Under the pieces are notes generated by a model that had not been told where the DNA came from, made no database searches, and worked only from the letters and a program-made list of their open reading frames with translations. A DNA stretch of 64,000 bases from Clostridia bacterium (GTDB lineage Bacteria > Bacillota > Clostridia > Christensenellales > SZUA-584). The position numbers and the translations under genes were made by a program. Below, piece by piece: positions 27,515 to 47,409 of the stretch. The stretch is taken from the NCBI GenBank assembly GCA_018648645.1, contig JABGQS010000001.1, positions 40,298 through 104,297 on the forward strand. The letters run 5' to 3'. The first letter of the stretch is position 1, and every line of letters begins with the position of its first letter.

Positions 27515-28158
27515 TTTTCGGACTCGGAAGAGATTAGTTTTTCCAACTTATTTTTTACACGCTGGAGCGCGTTGTCGACAGACTTTACGCTGCGGTTAAG
27601 CTCTTTGGCAACTTCGAGGTACGATTTGCCTTCGATGTATTTTTGCAGAACCTTCATTTCGAGAGGAGAGAGCATTTTGCCCATTTTAGACTCGATGGTG
27701 CTAAAATCCTCTTTGCCGATAAAGATGTCTTCGGGGTTGCTGATTTTACCGCTGCTGAGCACGTCTATGAGCATCCTGTCCGACTCCTCGTCGTATACCG
27801 GTTTGTTAAGAGACACGTATGAGTTTAGCGGACGGTGCTTTTGACGCGTGGCTGTTTTGATTGCGGTGATGATTTGGCGCGTGATGCAAAGCTCTGCAAA
27901 AGCGCGAAACGAGGTGAGTTTGCTAGCGCGAAAATCTCGAATCGCCTTGTAGAGACCAATCATGCCTTCCTGTACGATGTCTTCTCTATCCGCACCGATA
28001 AGGAAATATGAACGCGCCTTGGCACGCACGAAATTTTTGTATTTGGTTAACAGATAATCCTGCGCGTCTGAGTCGTTATCTCGCGCAAGCTCTGCAATTT
28101 GCTCGTCCGGCAACTCGTCAAAATCGGTATAAACTTTTGTCATGGGTGTGGTGTTCAA
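27511..28158 (-). CDS. sigH: RNA polymerase sigma factor SigH
   Basis: KARSYFLIGADREDIVQEGMIGLYKAIRDF, ATRQKH.PLNSYVSL, KSVDNALQRVK. Confidence 0.97.
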   Translation of the reverse strand: MNTTPMTKVYTDFDELPDEQIAELARDNDSDAQDYLLTKYKNFVRAKARSYFLIGADREDIVQEGMIGLYKAIRDFRASKLTSFRAFAELCITRQIITAIKTATRQKHRPLNSYVSLNKPVYDEESDRMLIDVLSSGKISNPEDIFIGKEDFSTIESKMGKMLSPLEMKVLQKYIEGKSYLEVAKELNRSVKSVDNALQRVKNKLEKLISSESEN

Positions 28159-38426: not shown

Positions 38427-38990
38427 CTATTCTTTCCACAGCGCCTGCGCACCGGTTGATATGCCGATGGCGCCGTTGCTGAGCGCGTCAATCACCTGCT
38501 TTGTGTCCTCGACCATGCCGCCCGCAATAACGGGAACGGTGATTTCGCTCGTAAAGCGCGCTATAACGCTTGGTATGATGCCGGGCATTATTTCTACCAT
38601 CGAGGGTTTGTTTTTGTGCACCGCCTTTACGGAAACGTCGAACGACGCGTTGTCCACCATGAAAAAGCGCTGGACACAAAACACACCGCGTTCTCGCGCG
38701 TGCTTGATGAGTGAGCTTTTTGTGCTTATGATGCCGCTTGGTGCAATTCGCTTTTGCACGTAGTCGAGCGCCTTGGCACCGGGGGAAAGCCCGTCGATGA
38801 GGTCCATGTGCAAAAAAACGTTGCAGTTTGCATTGCGCGCGATATCGACAAACGCCTTGGCAGAGAAGATATCGGTGTTCAGTAAAAAAATCGTAGGCAC
38901 GCCAATCGCGATCGCCTGCTCGAGCCCTTCCTTTGTATGAACCGCCGCAATGATGGGGTTGTCTTTGATGGTGTCGATATACTCGTGCAT
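38427..38990 (-). CDS. glpP: Glycerol-3-phosphate-responsive antiterminator GlpP family
   Basis: PIIAAV, H.DLIDGL, GIISTK, QRFF..D, EIMPG, IAGG, GA..IST....LW. Confidence 0.92.
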   Translation of the reverse strand: MHEYIDTIKDNPIIAAVHTKEGLEQAIAIGVPTIFLLNTDIFSAKAFVDIARNANCNVFLHMDLIDGLSPGAKALDYVQKRIAPSGIISTKSSLIKHARERGVFCVQRFFMVDNASFDVSVKAVHKNKPSMVEIMPGIIPSVIARFTSEITVPVIAGGMVEDTKQVIDALSNGAIGISTGAQALWKE

Positions 38991-39083
38991 AATTTTCTCC
39001 AAAAATGATTTGGTTTATTATATCATGAGGCTTGCGATGATTGCAAAAAATGTGATAGAATCCGCATTGAGAGGTATAAAATT

Positions 39084-39998
39084 ATGAGAAAAGAATTTTC
39101 CTTTGAATCGCAGGACGGCAAGCAGATTTTTGTGTACAAGTGGGAAGCGAAAAAGCCGGTGGCGGCTGTGCAGATTGCTCACGGCGCTGTAGAGCACGCG
39201 CTGCGATATGACGACTTTGCAAATGCGCTGGCAAAGCAGGGGTTTGTTGTGTATGCGAACGACCACAGGGGGCACGGCAAAACAGCCGGGGAAGCGGATA
39301 ACGTGGGATATTTTTCTGACCAAAAAGGCGGGATAAATCTGGCGATTGATGATATGCTTGCGTTGACAAAGATTATTAAAAAAGAAAATCCTTATATGCC
39401 TGTATTTCTTTTTGGTCATAGTATGGGTTCGCATATGTCAAGGCTGTACGCAGCAAAGTATGGTGGTGAAATTGATGGGCTGCTGCTGACAGGCACCGGC
39501 AGAGTTAACAACGTGCTTATATCCATCGTGCGTGCCTTTGCAAAGGTGCAAATGGTGCTGCTTGGTAGAAAGCACAAGTCACCGCTTTTGAATACTTTGG
39601 TGTTTGGTACGCTTAACCAACCGTTTAAAGGTGACAAGGGCTGCGAGTTTATCAGCACGGATCAAGCCGTTATTGATGCATATGAAAAGGATGAATATTG
39701 CGGGAACACCATTACGCCGGAGTTTGTTTATGAACTGTTTTGGTGCATAAAGCAGGCGACAAAGAAGGAAACGTTTGCTGCCACACCAAACGATATACCG
39801 ATTTTTATTGGTGCGGGCGAGTTTGACACGATGGGCGGCAATAAGCTGTCTGCCGTCAATAAGGATGTCGCCGATTTTTCGAAAAACAACGAAGTAACGT
39901 TTAAAAGATATGAAAACATGCGGCACGAGATACTGAACGAGAAGGACAAGCAAGTCGTATACACGGACATTATCGAGTGGCTTAAAGCGCAGATTTAG
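39084..39998 (+). CDS. Alpha/beta hydrolase (lysophospholipase/monoacylglycerol lipase family)
   Basis: HG..EH..RY, DHRGHG, GHSMGS nucleophile motif, RHEILNE. Confidence 0.92.
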   Translation: MRKEFSFESQDGKQIFVYKWEAKKPVAAVQIAHGAVEHALRYDDFANALAKQGFVVYANDHRGHGKTAGEADNVGYFSDQKGGINLAIDDMLALTKIIKKENPYMPVFLFGHSMGSHMSRLYAAKYGGEIDGLLLTGTGRVNNVLISIVRAFAKVQMVLLGRKHKSPLLNTLVFGTLNQPFKGDKGCEFISTDQAVIDAYEKDEYCGNTITPEFVYELFWCIKQATKKETFAATPNDIPIFIGAGEFDTMGGNKLSAVNKDVADFSKNNEVTFKRYENMRHEILNEKDKQVVYTDIIEWLKAQI

Positions 39999-40118
39999 CA
40001 GCGGTGCGGTCTCTTTTGCCGGTATGCATCTGCTCGCGGTTGGTATACATTTTTTAGTTGGGAAAACTTACTTTTATGTAGTATAATACTATATATTGAA
40101 GTTTCGGGAGGAACACAT

Positions 40119-40439
40119 ATGCTTTTAGACGCTAATTATAATGAGAGCAATAACAGATGGGATGTTAATTTGTATGGTGAGGTTGACATCTATAATGCAG
40201 ACAGCTTGAAGAACGAACTGCACTCTTTGATTGCCGAAAAAAGTGCGGATATCGTTCTTGACTGCACGAATTTGAAATACATCGACTCGACCGGACTTGG
40301 CGTTTTGGTAAACGCGCTGAAAAAGGTGAAAGAGACAGAAAAGTCGATTCGCATTGTGAACTTGAAACCGTACATCGCGAAAATCTTTACGCTGACCGGG
40401 CTGGACAAAATATTTGTGATAGAGGTGAGTGAGCAGTGA
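40119..40439 (+). CDS. STAS anti-sigma factor antagonist (RsbV/SpoIIAA family)
   Basis: GEVD, YIDSTGLG (phosphoacceptor Ser), IF.LTGL. Confidence 0.95.
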   Translation: MLLDANYNESNNRWDVNLYGEVDIYNADSLKNELHSLIAEKSADIVLDCTNLKYIDSTGLGVLVNALKKVKETEKSIRIVNLKPYIAKIFTLTGLDKIFVIEVSEQ

Positions 40440-40801
40440 ACAAAGATAAGGTTACGTTAAGCGTTCCTGCTAAGCCTGATTATATAATCGCGGTGCGGCT
40501 GATTGTGTCGGCTGTTGCGCAGCGTGCGCAGTTTAGCCTTGACGATATCGAGGATTTGAAAGTGGCAAGCGCGGAAGCGTGCACATTGCTGCTTGCGCAA
40601 AACCCGGAAACTATCGAGGTGTCGATTAGCAAAGGTGAAAGTATTCATGTTTGCCTGACGGCAATTGCACCAAAGGGCAGCCAAGGCGAAGAAGACGAAG
40701 TAAGTGAGCTTAGCCAGTACTTGTTGGAAGCTCTTGTTGATCGTTGCGAGCTTGTCCACGAAGGTGAGATTTTAAAGAGTATTAATATATATAAGAACTA
40801 G
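40436..40801 (+). CDS. RsbW-like anti-sigma factor with degenerate kinase motifs
   Basis: PAKPDY...VRL.VS.......F..DDIEDLKVA..EAC as in RsbW, but no N-box Asn, DxG or GxG. Confidence 0.8.
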   Translation: MNKDKVTLSVPAKPDYIIAVRLIVSAVAQRAQFSLDDIEDLKVASAEACTLLLAQNPETIEVSISKGESIHVCLTAIAPKGSQGEEDEVSELSQYLLEALVDRCELVHEGEILKSINIYKN

Positions 40802-40825
40802 TTTATTTTTTTGTTGGGGTTTTTG

Positions 40826-41569
40826 ATGCAGTATGAAGAAATGAGCGAGCATGAGCTGTTTGAATGTTATGATAATCAGCCCAGCGATGCTTTAAAAGAG
40901 TGCATTTTAAGAAAATATTTATATATTGCCGAGATCGTCGCCAAAAAGTTCGTTGGTCGTGGTGTCGAGTTCGATGACCTGTTTCAGGTGGCGTCTTTGG
41001 CGTTGGTCAAAGCAGTTGACCGATTTGAGAACGTGCGCGGCGTAAAGTTTAGCAGCTTTGCGACCCCAACGCTGGTAGGTGAAATAAAGAACTATTTTAG
41101 GGACAAGACGCGAATCATACGCATATCGCGGCGCGACAGCGAAATGATACGCAAGATGGACGACGCGAAAGAAGTGCTGCAGCGCAAAAAAGGACGCAAT
41201 ATAAAGCCGGAGGACATTGCGCGGTATCTTGGTATTGATGTTGAACGCGTGCTGGAGCTTATGGAAACGCAGTCCGTGGGCTATGCAACGTCGCTTGACA
41301 GCGCTATTGCGGCCGGCGAAGATGTACAGCTGATGCAGATACTTGGGAGCGAAGACAGCGAGTATGAAAAGGTGGAAAACAGAGATTTTATCGCGTATTG
41401 CATGGCGCGGTTAAACGATGTAGAAAAGCAGCTCATTAAATATCGATACGTTTATGAGAAGAGCCAACGCGAGGTGGCGGCAAAGCTTGGGGTATCCCAA
41501 ATGTATGTTAGCAGGGTTGAGCGAAAAATTTTGGAAAAATTACGCACCATATATGAAAATCAGGTTTAA
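40826..41569 (+). CDS. sigB: SigB/SigF/SigG family sigma factor, SigB-type by gene context
   Basis: DDLFQVA.L.LVKAVDRF, FATPT..GEIKNYFRD, SQREVA..LGVSQMYVSR; follows rsbV/rsbW-like genes. Confidence 0.8.
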   Translation: MQYEEMSEHELFECYDNQPSDALKECILRKYLYIAEIVAKKFVGRGVEFDDLFQVASLALVKAVDRFENVRGVKFSSFATPTLVGEIKNYFRDKTRIIRISRRDSEMIRKMDDAKEVLQRKKGRNIKPEDIARYLGIDVERVLELMETQSVGYATSLDSAIAAGEDVQLMQILGSEDSEYEKVENRDFIAYCMARLNDVEKQLIKYRYVYEKSQREVAAKLGVSQMYVSRVERKILEKLRTIYENQV

Positions 41570-41589
41570 CACCATAAAAAGCTGGGTAT
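41564..41589 (+). promoter_or_regulatory. SigB-type promoter upstream of the second kinase gene
   Basis: GTTTAA-N14-GGGTAT matches the B. subtilis/Listeria SigB consensus; -35 overlaps the sigma gene stop. Confidence 0.75.
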
Positions 41590-41665
41590 ATATGAATTGA
41601 ACAGCGGCGCTAAGCGCTGACGACAGCTATGAAAAGTCGCAAAAAAATATGGACTTGGTGTTTAA

Positions 41666-42082
41666 ATGAAAACGAACTTTATTAGAGAATACATACTGAC
41701 TGAAATCGCAGATATTAAAATTGCCATTGATGGCGTAATGAGCGGAATAGAAGGGCTTTTTACTCTGTCTGATGCTCGTAAATATGAGATTAAACTCGTG
41801 ATGAACGAGCTTTTGGTGAACTGCTTTGATCATTCGTGCCCAAAGGACAAGCAGACTGTTGTGCTCAAAGTGTCTGCAAAAGAAGATAAAGTGCGCATTC
41901 GTGTAAAAGATAACGGGCAGGGGTTTGAGTATGAGTATACCAACAAGCGCCTTGGGGACCCAATCAGCAAAGAGCGGCTGTACAGCGAAAACGGCAGGGG
42001 CTTGATGTTGGTCAACGCGTTTTGTGACAACGTTAAGTATTTTGGGAACGGTAACAGCGTGGAGGTAAATATCGCGTTATAA
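41666..42082 (+). CDS. HATPase_c Ser/Thr kinase (RsbW/SpoIIAB-like) with intact motifs
   Basis: NELLVNCFDH (N-box), VKDNGQG (G1), ENGRGLMLV (G2). Confidence 0.9.
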   Translation: MKTNFIREYILTEIADIKIAIDGVMSGIEGLFTLSDARKYEIKLVMNELLVNCFDHSCPKDKQTVVLKVSAKEDKVRIRVKDNGQGFEYEYTNKRLGDPISKERLYSENGRGLMLVNAFCDNVKYFGNGNSVEVNIAL

Positions 42083-42213
42083 ACAGCAATACAATAAAAA
42101 AAATCCCCCTTTATCACTAAATTTGAGGTTTGCTCTGTTTAATAATAAAGGATTTTTTTTTTGGATGGAGAAGTATACTAAGGAGAAGCAGTGAAAAGGG
42201 GATGATGCGGCAG

Positions 42214-43389
42214 ATGGCAGTTAGGCGCAAACCAAAGCTAAGATTTTTTATAATACTGGGGATCGCTTTAATTGGTGCAATCCTCGCCGTTATTTTAGTG
42301 ATTCAAAGCCGACAGACGGCGGCGGTCGAGTGGGCGAGCACAGAGTTTGAAGCGAACTTTGACGTTTTGATTGTGCGCGATGAGGTTGTATACGAAGCAA
42401 AGAATTACGGCAAGACAGAGTTTATCGCCGTGGAAGGCGAGAGAGTGGAAGTAGCAGACCCCATCGTTGAGGTTTATGAATGGGGATACAATGACACTAC
42501 GCACAGCGAGCTGTTGGATTTACAGAAAATCATACTCGAATATGAAGCGGATGTCATCAGAGCAGGAATCATTGATGACCAGCTAATAGATATAAACGTA
42601 AGAATTGACGCCAAGGCACTGCAGATTGCGCAGGTCGTATCGGGAGATGCTAAAGATTTGCTCCCGCTTGAGAGAGAGATGAAAGAGCTGCTTGACGAGC
42701 GAAGTACGTATCTTCGAAACGTGATGCCGGACGATCAGCTGACCGAGTATCTAAAGCAGGAAACAGCGCTGCTTGAGTTGATTGCAGGGTGGCGGCAGTC
42801 GGTTGTTGCCAACGAACCGGGTCTCGTAAGCTTCTACTTTGACGGGAACGAAGCGTTGATGAGCAAGGAGAACATCGGAAGCTTTACACGCAGCGCGCTT
42901 GAGGAAGTCATCGACGGAAAGATTATCGAAACAAGCAGCGATGACCAGGCGTTTGTGCCGCTGTATCGAGTGGTCAAAGAGGACGAGTGGTATGTGATAT
43001 TGCTCTCTGATGCCGATATTCCCGAGATGTATATCGGCAACGGATTTTCGATCATTTTCGACGATTATTTGGACGAGATGCAGACCGGAGTCGTGTTTGA
43101 GAAGACAATACTTGAAAATAATGACGGTTTTGTGTATACTATACTGATAAGAGGTAATATTGGCGCTCTTCTGGGGGAGAGGCGAGTTTCTGCAAAGCTA
43201 TATAACGTGCAGGAAGGCATGCGAGTGCCGCGCTCGTGTATCCGGTCAACCGGCGAGATTAGCTACGTCGAAACGACCGATGGACAGATTGTTCCGGTGT
43301 ACTTGATTGCGGATGACGGCGAGTACGTTTTCATACAGACCTATCAGGGAGAAGCAGAGCTGCAGATTGGTCAACTGTTAAAAAAATAA
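42214..43389 (+). CDS. Membrane-anchored HlyD/membrane-fusion-like protein upstream of yggS
   Basis: N-terminal TM; IVRDE.V, EGERV, PGLVSFY.DG.E, G.RVP; start uncertain (42202-42214). Confidence 0.7.
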   Translation: MAVRRKPKLRFFIILGIALIGAILAVILVIQSRQTAAVEWASTEFEANFDVLIVRDEVVYEAKNYGKTEFIAVEGERVEVADPIVEVYEWGYNDTTHSELLDLQKIILEYEADVIRAGIIDDQLIDINVRIDAKALQIAQVVSGDAKDLLPLEREMKELLDERSTYLRNVMPDDQLTEYLKQETALLELIAGWRQSVVANEPGLVSFYFDGNEALMSKENIGSFTRSALEEVIDGKIIETSSDDQAFVPLYRVVKEDEWYVILLSDADIPEMYIGNGFSIIFDDYLDEMQTGVVFEKTILENNDGFVYTILIRGNIGALLGERRVSAKLYNVQEGMRVPRSCIRSTGEISYVETTDGQIVPVYLIADDGEYVFIQTYQGEAELQIGQLLKK

Positions 43390-43435
43390 GTTTATGTTAC
43401 ATAAAAGGTTTATGTTGCATTATAGGTAAATACAA

Positions 43436-44119
43436 ATGATGGACATAAGTGAGAATATAAGAAACATTATAGAAAGGGTTGATAAAAGCGCTAAGAAGTC
43501 AAAACGTAGTAAGGACGACATTACGATTGTTGCTGTCAGCAAAACAGTGAATGCTGAATCTGTTGTACAGGCCGCAAAGGCCGGCATGAAGGATTTTGGC
43601 GAAAACCGTGTCCAAGAGTTTCTGAAAAAACGTGAGGAAATAGGAGACGAAGTTAATTGGCACATCATTGGACCGCTGCAACGTAATAAGGTAAAGTTTA
43701 TACTCGACGGTGTAACTTTACTGCATTCATTGGACAGGCTCTCTTTGGCCGAGGAAATTGAGAAGCAGTGTGAAAAGCTGCGCACCAACCTTGACGTACT
43801 CGTGCAGGTGAACATTGCAAAAGAGCCGACAAAATCGGGTGTGTTTGAAGAAGATCTTGAAAAGTTTCTTGAAAGTCTATCTGTTTTGAGGAACGTGCGC
43901 GTCAAAGGACTTATGGCCATCCCGCCGTATTCACTTGACCCGGACGGTAACAGAAAGTATTTTGCAAGAATGCGTGTCTTGTATGACACATTCAAGAATT
44001 TCTCTGACGGATTCGAATACCTGTCTATGGGTATGTCGGGAGACTTTGAAGCTGCTATTAAAGAAGGTGCTAATATAATTCGGATTGGAACTGCCGTGTT
44101 TGGAGCGAGGTCATATTAA
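43436..44119 (+). CDS. yggS: YggS family pyridoxal phosphate homeostasis protein
   Basis: VAVSK, FGENRVQE, WH.IG.LQ.NK, LSMGMSGDF..AI.EG. Confidence 0.96.
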   Translation: MMDISENIRNIIERVDKSAKKSKRSKDDITIVAVSKTVNAESVVQAAKAGMKDFGENRVQEFLKKREEIGDEVNWHIIGPLQRNKVKFILDGVTLLHSLDRLSLAEEIEKQCEKLRTNLDVLVQVNIAKEPTKSGVFEEDLEKFLESLSVLRNVRVKGLMAIPPYSLDPDGNRKYFARMRVLYDTFKNFSDGFEYLSMGMSGDFEAAIKEGANIIRIGTAVFGARSY

Positions 44120-44137
44120 TTTTAGGGGGTTTCAATT

Positions 44138-44596
44138 ATGTCGAAGGGTATTTTTAACCGTATCTTGGATGCGGTCGGACTCGAAGAAGAAGAATTTGAG
44201 TATGAAGAGGACGAGATCATGGACGAGGAAGTAGATTTCTACGAAGATGAACTCGAAGAGCAGGAAGAACCGAGGGCTTCTAAAAGAAGACAGGCAAAGA
44301 TTACACCACTGCCGAACTCTTCTGCAAAGATGAAAATGCTTGTGTTTCAGCCAAGCAGCTACGAAGAAGCCGAGTGCATTATTGACAATCTGAAGTCTAG
44401 AAAACCGGTGATTATGAACCTTGATGAGCTTGAGCTTGAGCTTGGTCAGAGGATTCTGGACTTTGTAGGTGGAGCGGTATATTCGCTTAACGGCGATATT
44501 AAAAAAGTGGCAAGAAGTATTTTTGTCGTGGCTCCGTCCAATGTTGATGTTGCGCAGAATATCGAGACGAGCGCAAGAGACGGGTTCTATAGATAA
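44138..44596 (+). CDS. sepF: Cell division protein SepF
   Basis: P.SYEEA..I.D.LK, QRILDF..G..Y.L.G, IFVVAP.NV. Confidence 0.95.
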   Translation: MSKGIFNRILDAVGLEEEEFEYEEDEIMDEEVDFYEDELEEQEEPRASKRRQAKITPLPNSSAKMKMLVFQPSSYEEAECIIDNLKSRKPVIMNLDELELELGQRILDFVGGAVYSLNGDIKKVARSIFVVAPSNVDVAQNIETSARDGFYR

Positions 44597-44724
44597 TAAT
44601 ATGTGTAGATTGCATGCCGCAGGCTAATAGCTTAGCGGCATGTGGTGTATAATCTGTTTATTGTCGGGGTATTTATTAGCGATGCGACTAAGTCGCGATT
44701 CATTTGCGCGAAAGGGGTAGTGAC

Positions 44725-45969
44725 ATGTCTTTAACAACGAAAGACATATACGAAATGACCTTTAAAAGGTCTAAAAAAGGGTTTGACGAGGACGAGGTAG
44801 ATAAGTTTTTGGACCAGATTATTGACGAACTCAAGGCAAAACAAAACGAGATCGATTCTCTGAAAGAAGAGATCAAAGTTGTTAGAGACCTTGAAACCAA
44901 TATCAAAGGGACCGAAGACACCATCATGAACACGCTTGTGTCGGCACAGAAATCTTCTGAGCGAATCCTTCGGGAGGCGGCAAGGAAGGCCGAGCTGCTG
45001 ATCGACAACGCAGAAAACACAGCAAAACAAAAGAGCGAGTCGATGAAACACGAGCTGATTGTTTTGGAAAGAAAGCTTGCTGCCATTAAGCAAAGCGCAT
45101 ACAACTATGCCATGAGCTTTACAGAAATGGTCAACATACAAGCGACTTCGTTTGAGAAGACGTACCAAAGCTATTTTGGCGATATGGACGCGTATTCGAG
45201 CGGCGGAATCAACTTTGATGCGCTGGAGAGAATTGACAATGACATCTCGAAAGACATTGAGGAAATTGTCAGCAGCGATACAGTTGACGACGCGCCGGAA
45301 AAGGCGGATCAGCTTGCGGTTGAATGGAACATACCGGACAATGATGAAAACCAGGCGCTGGAAGCGCAAGAGCCTTTAGCTCCAATGGAGCAAATGGAGG
45401 AACTTGTTCCGCTTGAAAAAGCCGAGGTAGAACCAACTTTGTCGGAAAAGGCTGAGGAAGAGTCAATAGTGTTCGAGAAAGTGGAAGAGGAAGAGCCAAC
45501 GGTGTTCGAGAAGGTGGCAGAGGAAGAGCCCGAGAAGCTTGAGAAGGTGGATATAGAACCCGAAGAGCCTGTAGCCGAAGAGCCTGTAGCCGAAGAGCCC
45601 GCAGCCGAAGAGCCCGCAGCCGAAGAGCCCGCAGCCGAAGAGCCCGCAGACGAAGAGCCCGCAGCCGACGAGCCGAAAGCCGAGGAACCGAAAGCGGAGG
45701 AACCAAAAGCGGAGGAGCAGAAAGCCGAAGAGCCGGCAGAGGAACGCAAACCGGTCGATGGCATGCCGCTTAACGAGATCAATCAAGTTTTGACCGATAT
45801 CGAAGTGGACGGTGACGAACCTGCCGACGCTGACAAGACAAAGTTTGACGATTATTCGTGGCTGTATGGCGAAGACGAGAAGAAAGAAAAAAGTGACTTT
45901 GAGCTATCGTTCAAAGACCCAAAAGAAGGACAGGAACTAAAGTCCTTGATAGACGACGTAATCGAATAA
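44725..45969 (+). CDS. divIVA: DivIVA-domain protein with long acidic repetitive C-terminus
   Basis: LT..DI....F.RS.KGFD.DEVD.FLD; coiled coil TLV.AQ..SE.I..EA..KAE. Confidence 0.85.
   Translation: MSLTTKDIYEMTFKRSKKGFDEDEVDKFLDQIIDELKAKQNEIDSLKEEIKVVRDLETNIKGTEDTIMNTLVSAQKSSERILREAARKAELLIDNAENTAKQKSESMKHELIVLERKLAAIKQSAYNYAMSFTEMVNIQATSFEKTYQSYFGDMDAYSSGGINFDALERIDNDISKDIEEIVSSDTVDDAPEKADQLAVEWNIPDNDENQALEAQEPLAPMEQMEELVPLEKAEVEPTLSEKAEEESIVFEKVEEEEPTVFEKVAEEEPEKLEKVDIEPEEPVAEEPVAEEPAAEEPAAEEPAAEEPADEEPAADEPKAEEPKAEEPKAEEQKAEEPAEERKPVDGMPLNEINQVLTDIEVDGDEPADADKTKFDDYSWLYGEDEKKEKSDFELSFKDPKEGQELKSLIDDVIE
45562..45741 (+). repeat. In-frame 15-bp tandem repeat encoding EEP(V/A/K)A, about 12 units
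   Basis: gaagagcctgtagcc x2, gaagagcccgcagcc x3, then degenerate copies. Confidence 0.9.
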
Positions 45970-45992
45970 CAAACAGTTAGGTAAATGCATTT

Positions 45993-46022
45993 GTCTGCAT
46001 AAGAATCTTATGCGGACTGTTT
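45993..46022 (+). terminator. Probable terminator after divIVA
   Basis: gtctgcataag-aat-cttatgcggac then tgttt. Confidence 0.65.
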
Positions 46023-46236
46023 GCTTTTGAGCTTGCTGTGAAAAGCGAAGCATGATTGTTGAAATTGGATACATATGATTGAGTTTTGAGCCATTTTCGT
46101 GACTCTTTGCTTAATAGATATTTAACAATTTCATAATGGTTATATCCATATTGTTTGTTATAATAGTCAGGGAAAGATGCTAGGTATGTGTGCGCGCCTG
46201 TTTTAGTATTGATAAAGAGGAGAGAAGGCTTTATTT

Positions 46237-47409
46237 ATGAGAATGACAGTTGGGCTATTTAATGAGTCGTTTGCACCCGTTGTCGACGGCGTTGCGAACG
46301 TTGTCGAGAACTATGCTTATTGGATAGATCAGAAACATGGCGACAGCATTGTTGTTACGCCGAAATTCCCCGGCGCGGTGGATGACTATGAGTTCGGGGT
46401 AAAGAGATATTCGTCGGTGAGGGTACCAACAAGACCTGAGTATCGTTTTGGGCTGCCCAAAATGGATGCGCCTTTTTGGCGAGACCTGATGAATACGGAG
46501 TTTGATATCGTTCATGCGCACAGTCCGTTTGGGTCGGGCAGCGCTGCAAAGACGTGTGCAAAGAGGCTTGATGTTCCGTTTGTAGCGACATTCCATTCAA
46601 AGTTTAGAGAGGATTTTAAGGCGGGGTTTAAGCTGGATGTCATCGTTAACTCAATATTATCGAAAATAGTGGAATTCTATGAGTCGGCTGACGAAGTGTG
46701 GGTGGTTAATGAAAGCTCTGTCGACACGCTGCGTGAGTATGGATATAAGGGCGACGTGCAAATCATGGAAAATGGCTGCGATATTGCTGTGCAGCATCCA
46801 TCCAAAGAGTCAAACGAACAGATAGATGAGATGTTTTCGCTTAGTGCAGAAACACCGTTGTTTATGTATATCGGGCAGCACACATGGCAAAAGAATCTAA
46901 AAATGGTGATGAAATCGCTGAAAATACTTCGCGATAGCGGCACTGATTTTCATATGGTGTTTATCGGTGACGGCGCAAAACGGCGTGAGATGGAGCACAT
47001 GAGCGCGAATTATGGATTGGATAACAACGTGACGTTTGCCGGCAAGATTTACGACCGTGACATTGTATCGAAGATATATCTGCGAAGCAGCGCGATGCTG
47101 TTTCCGTCAACGTATGATACTTCGTCGCTGGTGCCCAAAGAAGCGGCAGCGTGCGGGTGTCCGACGGTGTTTGTGCGAGGCGCAAGCACAGCGCAGGGCA
47201 TCACGGAGAAAAACGGTTTCTTGATTGAAGACACTGCACAGAGCCTTGCGCAAACGGCGCAGTATATCGCGGAGAATAAATCTGCCGCCAAAAAAGTGGG
47301 CAACCACGCGCGCAAAAGTGTTTATCGAAGCTGGGAAGACGCAGTTGAGGTTGCCACGAGCAGATACGAGTATTTGATTGAGCAAAAGAAGCTAACGAAA
47401 ACGGATTAG
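46237..47409 (+). CDS. GT4 glycosyltransferase (diacylglycerol glycosyltransferase-like)
   Basis: F.ESF.P.VDGV, HAHSPF..G, TFHS, KNL, FPS.YDT..LV..EAAA. Confidence 0.88.
   Translation: MRMTVGLFNESFAPVVDGVANVVENYAYWIDQKHGDSIVVTPKFPGAVDDYEFGVKRYSSVRVPTRPEYRFGLPKMDAPFWRDLMNTEFDIVHAHSPFGSGSAAKTCAKRLDVPFVATFHSKFREDFKAGFKLDVIVNSILSKIVEFYESADEVWVVNESSVDTLREYGYKGDVQIMENGCDIAVQHPSKESNEQIDEMFSLSAETPLFMYIGQHTWQKNLKMVMKSLKILRDSGTDFHMVFIGDGAKRREMEHMSANYGLDNNVTFAGKIYDRDIVSKIYLRSSAMLFPSTYDTSSLVPKEAAACGCPTVFVRGASTAQGITEKNGFLIEDTAQSLAQTAQYIAENKSAAKKVGNHARKSVYRSWEDAVEVATSRYEYLIEQKKLTKTD

Follow-up and report, generated by a model that had tools for sequence, protein, structure and literature searches.

A lid-less RsbW-like protein and a separate candidate kinase in one sigma-factor locus of a marine Christensenellaceae-like bacterium: a possible split partner switch

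In the textbook partner switches built on RsbW or SpoIIAB, one protein both sequesters the sigma factor and phosphorylates the antagonist that releases it. The locus described here raises the question of whether these two jobs can lie on two proteins. It is part of a 64,000-nucleotide stretch of a Clostridia bacterium genome (assembly GCA_018648645.1, contig JABGQS010000001.1, positions 40,298 to 104,297), which we call the window and from whose first letter all coordinates are counted. The locus encodes a STAS-domain antagonist (V), a protein in the position of RsbW (W1), a sigma factor, and a second small protein with an ATPase fold (W2). We think it reasonably probable that these genes form a partner switch in which the two RsbW jobs are divided, W1 being the sigma binder and W2 the V kinase, with W2 behind a promoter of the type read by the sigma factor itself. 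The host is a marine Christensenellaceae-like bacterium, a group in which a split anti-sigma/kinase switch appears to be undescribed; a literature search that had most subscription journals outside its scope did not find the arrangement for Christensenellales or for other Clostridia.

The first-pass annotation, made from the letters of this DNA, had described a STAS gene, an RsbW-like gene, a sigma gene, and a HATPase_c gene in that order. The list of open reading frames (ORFs) with their translations gives the same coordinates and the same order, with all four genes co-directional, and every motif string quoted for them is present in the translations. The features of the locus are as follows.

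40058..40087, plus strand: sigma-70-like promoter candidate, TTGGGA-18-TATAAT, upstream of V
40119-40439, plus strand: V, STAS antagonist of 106 amino acids (ORF translation, Pfam, NCBIfam)
40436-40801, plus strand: W1, RsbW-position protein of 121 amino acids, a lid-less, noncatalytic GHKL protein and proposed stoichiometric anti-sigma factor
40811-41569, plus strand: sigma factor of the SigB/SigF/SigG family, group 3, 252 amino acids from a TTG start, with Sigma70 regions 2, 3, and 4
41564-41589, plus strand: SigB-type promoter, GTTTAA-N14-GGGTAT, before W2, its -35 element overlapping the sigma stop codon
41666-42082, plus strand: W2, predicted small intact GHKL serine kinase of 138 amino acids (HATPase_c_2), proposed kinase of V

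The V stop codon overlaps the GTG start of W1 (GTGA), and 96 nucleotides separate the sigma gene from W2. Genes for RsbX, RsbU, or stressosome proteins were not found in the locus.

The four proteins and the gene inventory of the genome

V is an anti-sigma-factor antagonist by both domain and family models. Its translation, which carries LKYIDSTGLGVL, scores 74.9 bits on Pfam STAS and 90.8 bits on the NCBIfam model ant_ant_sig (TIGR00377, cutoff 53.45), and its closest solved structure is Bacillus subtilis RsbV (6m36_B, E value 8.9e-16). The segment Y54-I-D-S57-T-G-L-G (DSTGLG) is invariant in 22 of 22 orthologs, whose mean column identity is 81%. Ser57 aligns to the phosphorylatable Ser56 of RsbV, and V residues D23, Y54, S57, and K88 align to RsbV D23, Y53, S56, and R87.

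W1 retains the fold of RsbW and lacks its nucleotide-binding motifs. The protein carries PAKPDY, AVRL, DDIEDLKVA, AEACTLLL, and SELSQYLLEALVD, and it belongs to the HATPase_c_2 fold (PF13581, 29.7 bits against a gathering cutoff of 27.4, residues 10 to 110), as do 21 of its 22 orthologs by the same model. The RsbW models cover only residues 2 to 51 and score below their cutoffs (57.3 against 145 for NF003144 and 55.0 against 155.05 for TIGR01924). A phmmer alignment to B. subtilis RsbW (6m36) pairs Leu51 with the N-box Asn and ELSQY with the GGLGL columns of the G2 motif, and G1 is missing, which bears out the motif loss proposed by the first-pass annotation. An AlphaFold model built with 22 orthologs (mean predicted local distance difference test score, pLDDT, of 92) shows the RsbW succession of strand, helix, helix, hairpin, helix, and hairpin, with the ATP lid cut down to a nine-residue loop (residues 78 to 86). 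The best Foldseek matches of this model are RsbW (6m36) and Mycobacterium tuberculosis UsfX (8jzt, 8ih8), and the RsbW/SpoIIAB probability is 1.00. The N-box Asn, G1, G2, and the lid are all missing from its sequence, which by the usual criteria rules W1 out as a kinase. Public sources name W1-type proteins of 115 to 124 amino acids (P0026, P0032, P0033, and others) "serine/threonine-protein kinase RsbW," which is likely an overannotation because the ATP-binding motifs are missing.

What W1 has kept is the surface through which RsbW meets its antagonist. RsbW binds RsbV via helices alpha1 to alpha3, with hydrogen bonding by R23, D42, K44/S48, E49, and Y118, and E49 contacts the phosphorylatable Ser56 of RsbV (PMC7340262). 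The corresponding W1 residues are R21, D40, K42, A46, E47, and Y95, five of the six being identical, and all 22 orthologs share R21, D40, K42, and E47, in an alignment with 14 invariant columns overall. The crystals of the RsbV-RsbW complex (6m36/6m37) are nucleotide free with a disordered lid (PMC7340262), and therefore V binding needs neither nucleotide nor lid. Retention of the Glu together with loss of the neighboring Asn fits a protein that would read the phosphorylation state of V without catalysis. We also ran one multichain complex prediction with two copies each of W1 and W2 together with the sigma factor, which was the scored chain; the median was 0.51, compared with 0.00 and 0.00 for the controls in which sigma was replaced and 0.57 for the control in which W2 was replaced, values that under the scoring rule of the program speak neither for binding nor against it.

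W2, by comparison, has everything that the first-pass annotation had credited to the downstream kinase, namely, ELLVN, DNGQG, and ENGRGL, within the longer strings NELLVNCFDH, KDNGQGFEY, and SENGRGLMLV. It scores 63.6 bits on Pfam HATPase_c_2 and 39.9 bits on HATPase_c. E48, N52, G110, R111, and G112 do not vary among the 22 orthologs, and D82, G84, and G86 are conserved in at least 90%, so that the E-x3-N, DxGxG, and GxG motifs and the ATP lid of an RsbW/SpoIIAB-type kinase are all present; in the structural model, the lid is long and of low confidence (residues 83 to 101). At the same time, W2 scores below the equivalog cutoffs of RsbW (44.9 against 145) and SpoIIAB (34.0 against 135). A structured 5' leader of W2 was unsupported (folding z-score of -1.06), and Rfam gave no match at an E value of 0.1 or below over positions 38500 to 46500.

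The genome, which is 95% complete, offers few other candidates for these roles. V is its sole STAS match over the Pfam cutoff, and it encodes no small HATPase_c_2 proteins besides W1 and W2, the remaining four matches to that model lying in ORFs of 474 to 622 amino acids. W2 is therefore the only candidate kinase of the expected class. A single SpoIIE-type PP2C phosphatase, of 359 amino acids and with a PAS_8 domain, is encoded on another contig. The first-pass annotation had spoken of a four-component switch; its dead RsbW-position protein and intact downstream kinase stand, while the count does not, because the unlinked PAS-PP2C phosphatase brings the system to at least five parts.

The sigma factor itself cannot be told apart as SigB or SigF by family models. 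It scores 155.4 bits on the SigB model (cutoff 315) and 152.6 on the SigF model (cutoff 321.45), and by its sequence it appears to be a SigB/F-like group-3 sigma factor, an equivalog of neither. Its true start may be the ATG five codons after the TTG. We considered a reading of the module as the sporulation SigF system and rejected it on the low SpoIIAA and SpoIIAB equivalog scores (63.9 for V against 114.75 and 22.3 for W1 against 135, both NCBIfam models and both far under), on the SigB-type promoter, and on the finding of no further SigB/F/G-type sigma factor by TIGR02980. That model has three matches in the genome, of which the sigma factor of this locus is the best. The second, an ORF of 567 amino acids, is probably the primary sigma factor. 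The third lies inside the window, in an ORF of 224 amino acids at about 27889-28071 on the minus strand (G000:C1:68186-68368), which matches the SigB/F/G model partially (positions 2 to 62, 34 bits) and is probably another, unrelated sigma-70-family factor. Two Spo0A_C proteins are encoded outside the window (G000:C12:155057-155368 and G000:C67:42743-43054). This may be a nonsporulating lineage that keeps Spo0A paralogs; TIGR02980 found no further SigB/F/G sigma factor in a search that did not include the E and K models.

Conservation and descent of W1 and W2

If W1 were a damaged copy of rsbW in one strain, its motif loss should not recur among relatives. Each of the 24 same-family genomes carries an open-frame W1 ortholog, and such an ortholog was found in 31 of the 41 genomes searched. 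In 22 of the 24, a W2 ortholog (E value of 1e-24 or below) lies about 1.2 to 1.3 kb downstream of W1 on the same strand, and in the remaining two (G006 and G015), the contig ends first. Among the 16 other families of the order, three (G025, G028, and G030) also have W2 linked, and the gene order V-W1-sigma-W2-HlyD_2-YggS-SepF is kept in every locus long enough. A wider scan covered the best 80 of 494 relatives, with one genome per species. The four-gene order with a dead W1 is found in UBA3930- and DTU074-type metagenome-assembled genomes (MAGs), in Caldicoprobacterales, in an uncultured Clostridium, and in the cultured Ruminiclostridium cellobioparum (DSM 1351). Conservation of the gene order and linkage of the kinase gene to the operon, both of which the first-pass annotation had left to comparison with relatives, thus extend from the family into more distant Clostridia.

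The motifs follow the same pattern. We compared 87 distinct RsbW-position proteins, column by column, with the canonical RsbW row (EACTN, GGLGL), and the Glu is present in 87 of 87. Both the Asn and G2 are missing in 53 of the 53 proteins with W2 in the locus, which answers in the affirmative the question of whether orthologs share the motif loss and shows this loss to be neither accidental nor a sequencing artifact. Both are also missing in 17 proteins with no W2 at the locus, several of these loci being cut by contig ends, and five Tissierellia-group proteins have the Asn and lack G2. The 12 canonical RsbW proteins (147 to 164 amino acids) all keep Asn and G2, and none has W2 in its locus. 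Because these relatives are not independent, the association between a dead W1 and W2 is a pattern rather than a statistic. Locus L003 was left out as a duplicate of L032, and L034, L035, and L040 were left out because they are the window locus again; ORFs longer than 175 amino acids were reduced to their last 150 residues for the count and for the tree that follows.

A quick maximum-likelihood tree of 141 rows and 143 columns, of limited resolution and with long branches flagged, separates the two proteins. The 75 short W1-type rows form one clade (support of 95) nested among canonical Firmicute RsbW, and the 54 W2 rows form another on a long branch, apart from RsbW and W1 (Shimodaira-Hasegawa-like approximate likelihood ratio test support of 99). 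By this placement, W1 is derived from RsbW, and W2 did not arise by recent duplication of W1. Three Tissierellia-group genomes with a short W1 and no adjacent W2 carry an unlinked W2-like gene downstream of a GTPase gene, beyond which a Lon protease gene is seen in two of the three, and Brassicibacter has a W2-like gene whose neighbors are transporter and acyltransferase genes. That Brassicibacter also encodes a canonical RsbW suggests that the W2 lineage predates the loss of motifs in W1, or exists independently of it.

Two observations on the assemblies themselves may be added. Ten independent Tissierellia-group assemblies (L094, L095, L097-L099, L101, L102, L106, L109, and L114) break about 130 to 370 bp beyond the end of the sigma gene in the V-W1-sigma module, which suggests that in this group a repeated element, for instance a ribosomal RNA operon or an insertion sequence, lies directly downstream. 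DNA nearly identical to positions 39900 to 43400 of the window occurs in seawater and marine metagenome runs, with seven rows from five studies containing at least half of the sampled words, one of these rows possibly being the source; the relatives of the family derive mostly from other MAG collections.

Promoters, a proposed mechanism, and its rivals

The W2 gene is preceded by GTTTAA-N14-GGGTAT, a motif identical to the B. subtilis SigB consensus (GTTTAA-N15(+/-2)-GGGTAT) and to PrsbV (GTTTAA-N14-GGGTAT) as quoted in PMC9847131. Its -35 hexamer is formed by the last sense codon of the sigma gene (GTT) and the stop codon (TAA), and in all 24 family loci that include the 3' end of the sigma gene, GTT[TA]NN-N12-15-GGGT[AT][AT] occurs at -5 to +2 relative to the sigma stop. 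Outside the family, the motif is present in L026, shifted and degenerate in L027, and missing in L028 and L029-L031, and R. cellobioparum has GTTTAT-N13-GGGTAT before its W2. The four unlinked W2-like genes (of the three Tissierellia-group genomes and Brassicibacter) each have GATTAN-N13/14-GGGTA(A/T) upstream; this looser motif was defined after seeing the data and has eight matches in the 32.4 kb of these loci on both strands, five of them in the five upstream regions. Upstream of V, the picture differs. Within 200 nucleotides of V, a SigB-type motif was found in no family locus and in 1 of the 30 loci scanned, the out-of-family L029. The candidate in its place, TTGGGA-18-TATAAT, matches 10 of 12 consensus positions, and since shuffled sequence is expected to give as many such sites as the region has, it is weak taken alone; several orthologous V upstream regions have TGnTATAAT-like extended -10 boxes, as judged by eye. 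The SigB-type promoter before W2 suggests negative feedback that would be driven by the sigma factor through its kinase.

A mechanism can be proposed from these elements. V, W1, and the sigma factor would be made together, translationally coupled or closely spaced, from a housekeeping-type promoter. W1, having lost nucleotide binding and the lid and having kept the dimerization and partner-binding helices, would form dimers that hold the sigma factor. Upon some signal, the PAS-PP2C phosphatase would dephosphorylate phosphorylated V (V-P), and unphosphorylated V would bind W1 via the alpha1-alpha3 surface, so freeing sigma. Free sigma would transcribe a regulon that includes W2, W2 would phosphorylate Ser57 of V and switch the antagonist off, and Glu47 of W1, facing Ser57, would repel V-P and let W1 recapture sigma. 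As W2 lies behind a SigB-consensus promoter, freed sigma would raise its own kinase and shut itself off, a delayed negative feedback. Sigma binding by W1 and V phosphorylation by W2 form the best-supported reading, which draws on contact residues, the gene inventory, and analogy.

Several points weigh against this reading. What the sequences themselves establish is the state of the motifs, their conservation, the gene linkage and inventory, and the promoter motif; all binding, kinase, and transcription steps are inferred. Most W2 orthologs have Lys or Arg at the partner-binding Arg position, so that sigma binding by W2 is conceivable. The sigma factor reaches 210.3 bits on the TIGR02980 SigBFG model, under the cutoff of 234.35, and its recognition of the SigB-type motif is presumed from sequence. 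A search for that motif across the genome showed no clear enrichment over five shuffles (strict motif, 4 matches against 0 to 3; loose motif, 42 against 15 to 35), because of which the promoter assignment depends on the agreement with the SigB consensus and on phylogenetic footprinting, and not on a demonstrated regulon. The same search gave 16 gene-proximal matches, which we did not adopt as a regulon. Between sigma and W2 no terminator-like site was found, and W2 is probably also read from upstream for this reason. In Brassicibacter (G044), the unlinked W2-like gene coexists with a canonical RsbW that keeps the Asn and G2; the W2 lineage therefore also occurs in genomes without a dead W1, and another or an additional substrate is possible. 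Finally, the W2 ortholog of the out-of-family locus L028 (G030:C2, 4220-4624) lacks DxGxG (G1), and this is one of the loci without a SigB-type motif, which may point to decay of the kinase arm in that lineage.

Of the other explanations, the most serious makes W2 the real, bifunctional anti-sigma factor and kinase, with W1 as an accessory, either a buffer or decoy for V or a heterodimerizing modulator like RsbW3. W2 does have a complete GHKL fold with the N-terminal strand and helix of RsbW, and the basic residue at the partner-binding Arg in most of its orthologs would suit such a role. An accessory role for W1 also has a parallel in Mycobacterium smegmatis, where RsbW3, which resembles RsbW1, acts as an antagonist by binding RsbW1 (PMC7693655); noncatalytic paralogs of RsbW can hence take on other roles. 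It is W1, however, and not W2, that occupies the translationally coupled V-W-sigma position; the N-terminal half of RsbW is found in W1 (57 bits on the RsbW equivalog), while the W2 N terminus gives no match; and the tree places W1 in the canonical RsbW descent and W2 in a separate clade. The columns of the RsbV contacts D42 and K44 are invariant in W1 and variable in W2 orthologs, and with W2 as the only anti-sigma factor, made from a sigma-dependent promoter, sigma would start out unrestrained. The motif-bearing M. smegmatis RsbW2, for its part, does not bind SigF (PMC7693655). We consider a bifunctional W2 unlikely. A heterodimer of W1 and W2 that serves as the functional anti-sigma factor and kinase, in the manner of an asymmetric RsbW/SpoIIAB dimer with one catalytic and one structural subunit, seems to us quite improbable. 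RsbW-type dimerization goes through beta1 and alpha1 (PMC7340262), and both W1 and W2 keep these elements; their genes strictly co-occur in the clade, and RsbW1 and RsbW3 are reported to interact in M. smegmatis (PMC7693655). Against this, the W2-like gene is unlinked in Tissierellia-group genomes, the differing promoters and the weak ribosome-binding site of W2 (GGTG) would speak against a 1:1 stoichiometry, and M. smegmatis RsbW1 did not copurify with RsbW2 (PMC7693655).

W2 might instead act on another target, such as the products of the envelope and division genes downstream or some other substrate, with V controlled without it. HlyD_2-YggS-SepF always follows W2, and W2-like genes occur unlinked to the sigma module, one of them in a genome that also encodes a canonical RsbW. 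Yet V is the sole STAS protein and has an invariant Ser57 motif, the PP2C phosphatase has been kept, and the genome holds no other kinase of the class; moreover, the unlinked W2-like genes still carry a SigB-type promoter, which ties them to this sigma factor. We give this explanation little credence. The idea that W1 represents a degenerating rsbW allele or a pseudogene, and the module a relic, could appeal to its narrow passage over the Pfam cutoff (29.7 against 27.4 bits) and its scores under the RsbW equivalog cutoffs. A short W1 in an open frame in all 24 family genomes, a single clade of 75 tree rows, 14 invariant columns, a model with a pLDDT of 92, and HATPase_c_2 matches in 21 of 22 orthologs make it scarcely credible that the module is a relic, and the conserved loss of motifs across orthologs excludes a decaying allele. 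We retain the division of labor between W1 and W2 as our preferred explanation.

The genes that follow W2 are conserved context and probably lie outside the switch. All four were identified with Pfam.

42130-43389, plus strand: HlyD_2-like membrane protein
43436-44119, plus strand: YggS-like pyridoxal phosphate protein
44138-44596, plus strand: SepF
44704-45969, plus strand: DivIVA

The sigma module is inserted directly upstream of this HlyD_2-YggS-SepF-DivIVA block, which is the distal end of a division cluster. In B. subtilis, the sigE-sigG pair lies beside ylm-sepF-divIVA, an arrangement that was not used as evidence here. The probable start of the HlyD_2-like ORF is an ATG near 42203, in place of the TTG at 42130. 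In the C-terminal half of DivIVA (window positions 45400 to 45800), the translation shows a long acidic tail rich in Pro, Glu, and Ala, with EEPVA, EEPAA, and EEPKA units, after a DivIVA domain of 130 residues. A terminator-like site was likewise not found directly after W2, and read-through from the SigB-type promoter into the division genes is possible for that reason.

A much broader proposal, which we offer as speculation and think rather doubtful as a whole, is that a block of Clostridia (Christensenellales, Caldicoprobacterales, some Ruminiclostridium, and Tissierellia-group genera) independently exchanged a bifunctional RsbW for a lid-less pseudokinase. An older orphan kinase of the sigma regulon, the W2 lineage, would have enabled the exchange, and since this kinase would be made only after sigma release, the switch would be an obligate pulse generator with delayed negative feedback, the output of which may reach sepF-divIVA in Christensenellaceae.

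Comparison with known partner switches

The split of the RsbW job, which the first-pass annotation had by implication treated as new, has a precedent in the RsbW1 and RsbW2 proteins of M. smegmatis. Experiments published in 2020 showed that RsbW1 (MSMEG_1803) binds SigF and that RsbW2 (MSMEG_6129), which carries the N, G1, and G2 motifs, leaves SigF unbound and is the only kinase of RsfB Ser63; RsbW3 antagonizes RsbW1 and is SigF dependent (PMC7693655). What sets the present system apart is the lineage, with W1 in Firmicute RsbW, the one-locus layout, the single antagonist, and the sigma-type promoter before the kinase.

If the proposed division of labor is correct, splitting the RsbW job would be a recurrent evolutionary solution rather than a mycobacterial oddity, with a second and probably independent lineage inside the Firmicutes. 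Its one-locus form, which has only one antagonist and one phosphatase and places the kinase gene behind a consensus SigB-type promoter, would be a clean study system, and it could show how the dynamics of a partner switch change once stoichiometric binding and catalytic reset are separate. For annotation, the consequence is that W1-type proteins of 121 to 125 amino acids are being called kinase RsbW when their sequences are not those of kinases.

The likeness to the mycobacterial SigF switch is one of roles. In mycobacteria, the anti-sigma factor binds both sigma and the STAS antagonist in its unphosphorylated form, and a second RsbW homolog, which carries N, G1, and G2 motifs and does not bind sigma, phosphorylates the antagonist serine; the same roles are proposed here for W1 and W2, and in either system a PP2C phosphatase would do the resetting. 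M. tuberculosis UsfX, the RsbW1 ortholog, aligns end to end with W1 (E value of 0.013) and, like W1, has a residue other than Asn at the N-box and no Gly-rich G2; its structures with SigF (8jzt) and RsfB (8ih8) are among the sequence and fold matches of W1. By sequence, a motif-less anti-sigma homolog and a motif-bearing kinase homolog are both present, with common descent from the mycobacterial protein unsupported for W1. W1 is far nearer to Firmicute RsbW (E value of 7e-11) than to UsfX, and because it is also nested in Firmicute RsbW, its motif loss is probably independent of that in mycobacteria. The layouts differ as well. Mycobacterial parts are scattered, with rsbW1-sigF at one locus and rsfB-rsbW2 at another, while here they share one locus; mycobacteria have two or three antagonists and this genome one; and the mycobacterial sigma-dependent promoter precedes rsbW3, giving positive feedback, whereas the SigB-type promoter here precedes the kinase, with a proposed negative feedback. 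The clostridial system is likely an independent variant of the mycobacterial-style split.

RsbV-RsbW-SigB of B. subtilis is another close system. The V-W-sigma order with overlapping or abutting genes is the same, as are an RsbV-like V, an RsbW-like N-terminal half of W1 with the RsbV-contact residues, and an identical promoter motif. The differences are that B. subtilis RsbW is a bifunctional protein of 160 amino acids with a lid, the N-box Asn, and G2, whereas W1, at 121 amino acids, has none of these, and that the SigB promoter of B. subtilis precedes rsbV and drives the whole module, whereas here it precedes only the additional kinase gene. With SpoIIAA-SpoIIAB-SigF (1l0o, 1th8, 1tid), the locus has in common the three-gene architecture and the fold (query-normalized Foldseek template modeling score of about 0.8 for W1), but it departs from that system in its SpoIIAB and SpoIIAA equivalog scores, far under the cutoffs, and in a promoter that is of the SigB type.

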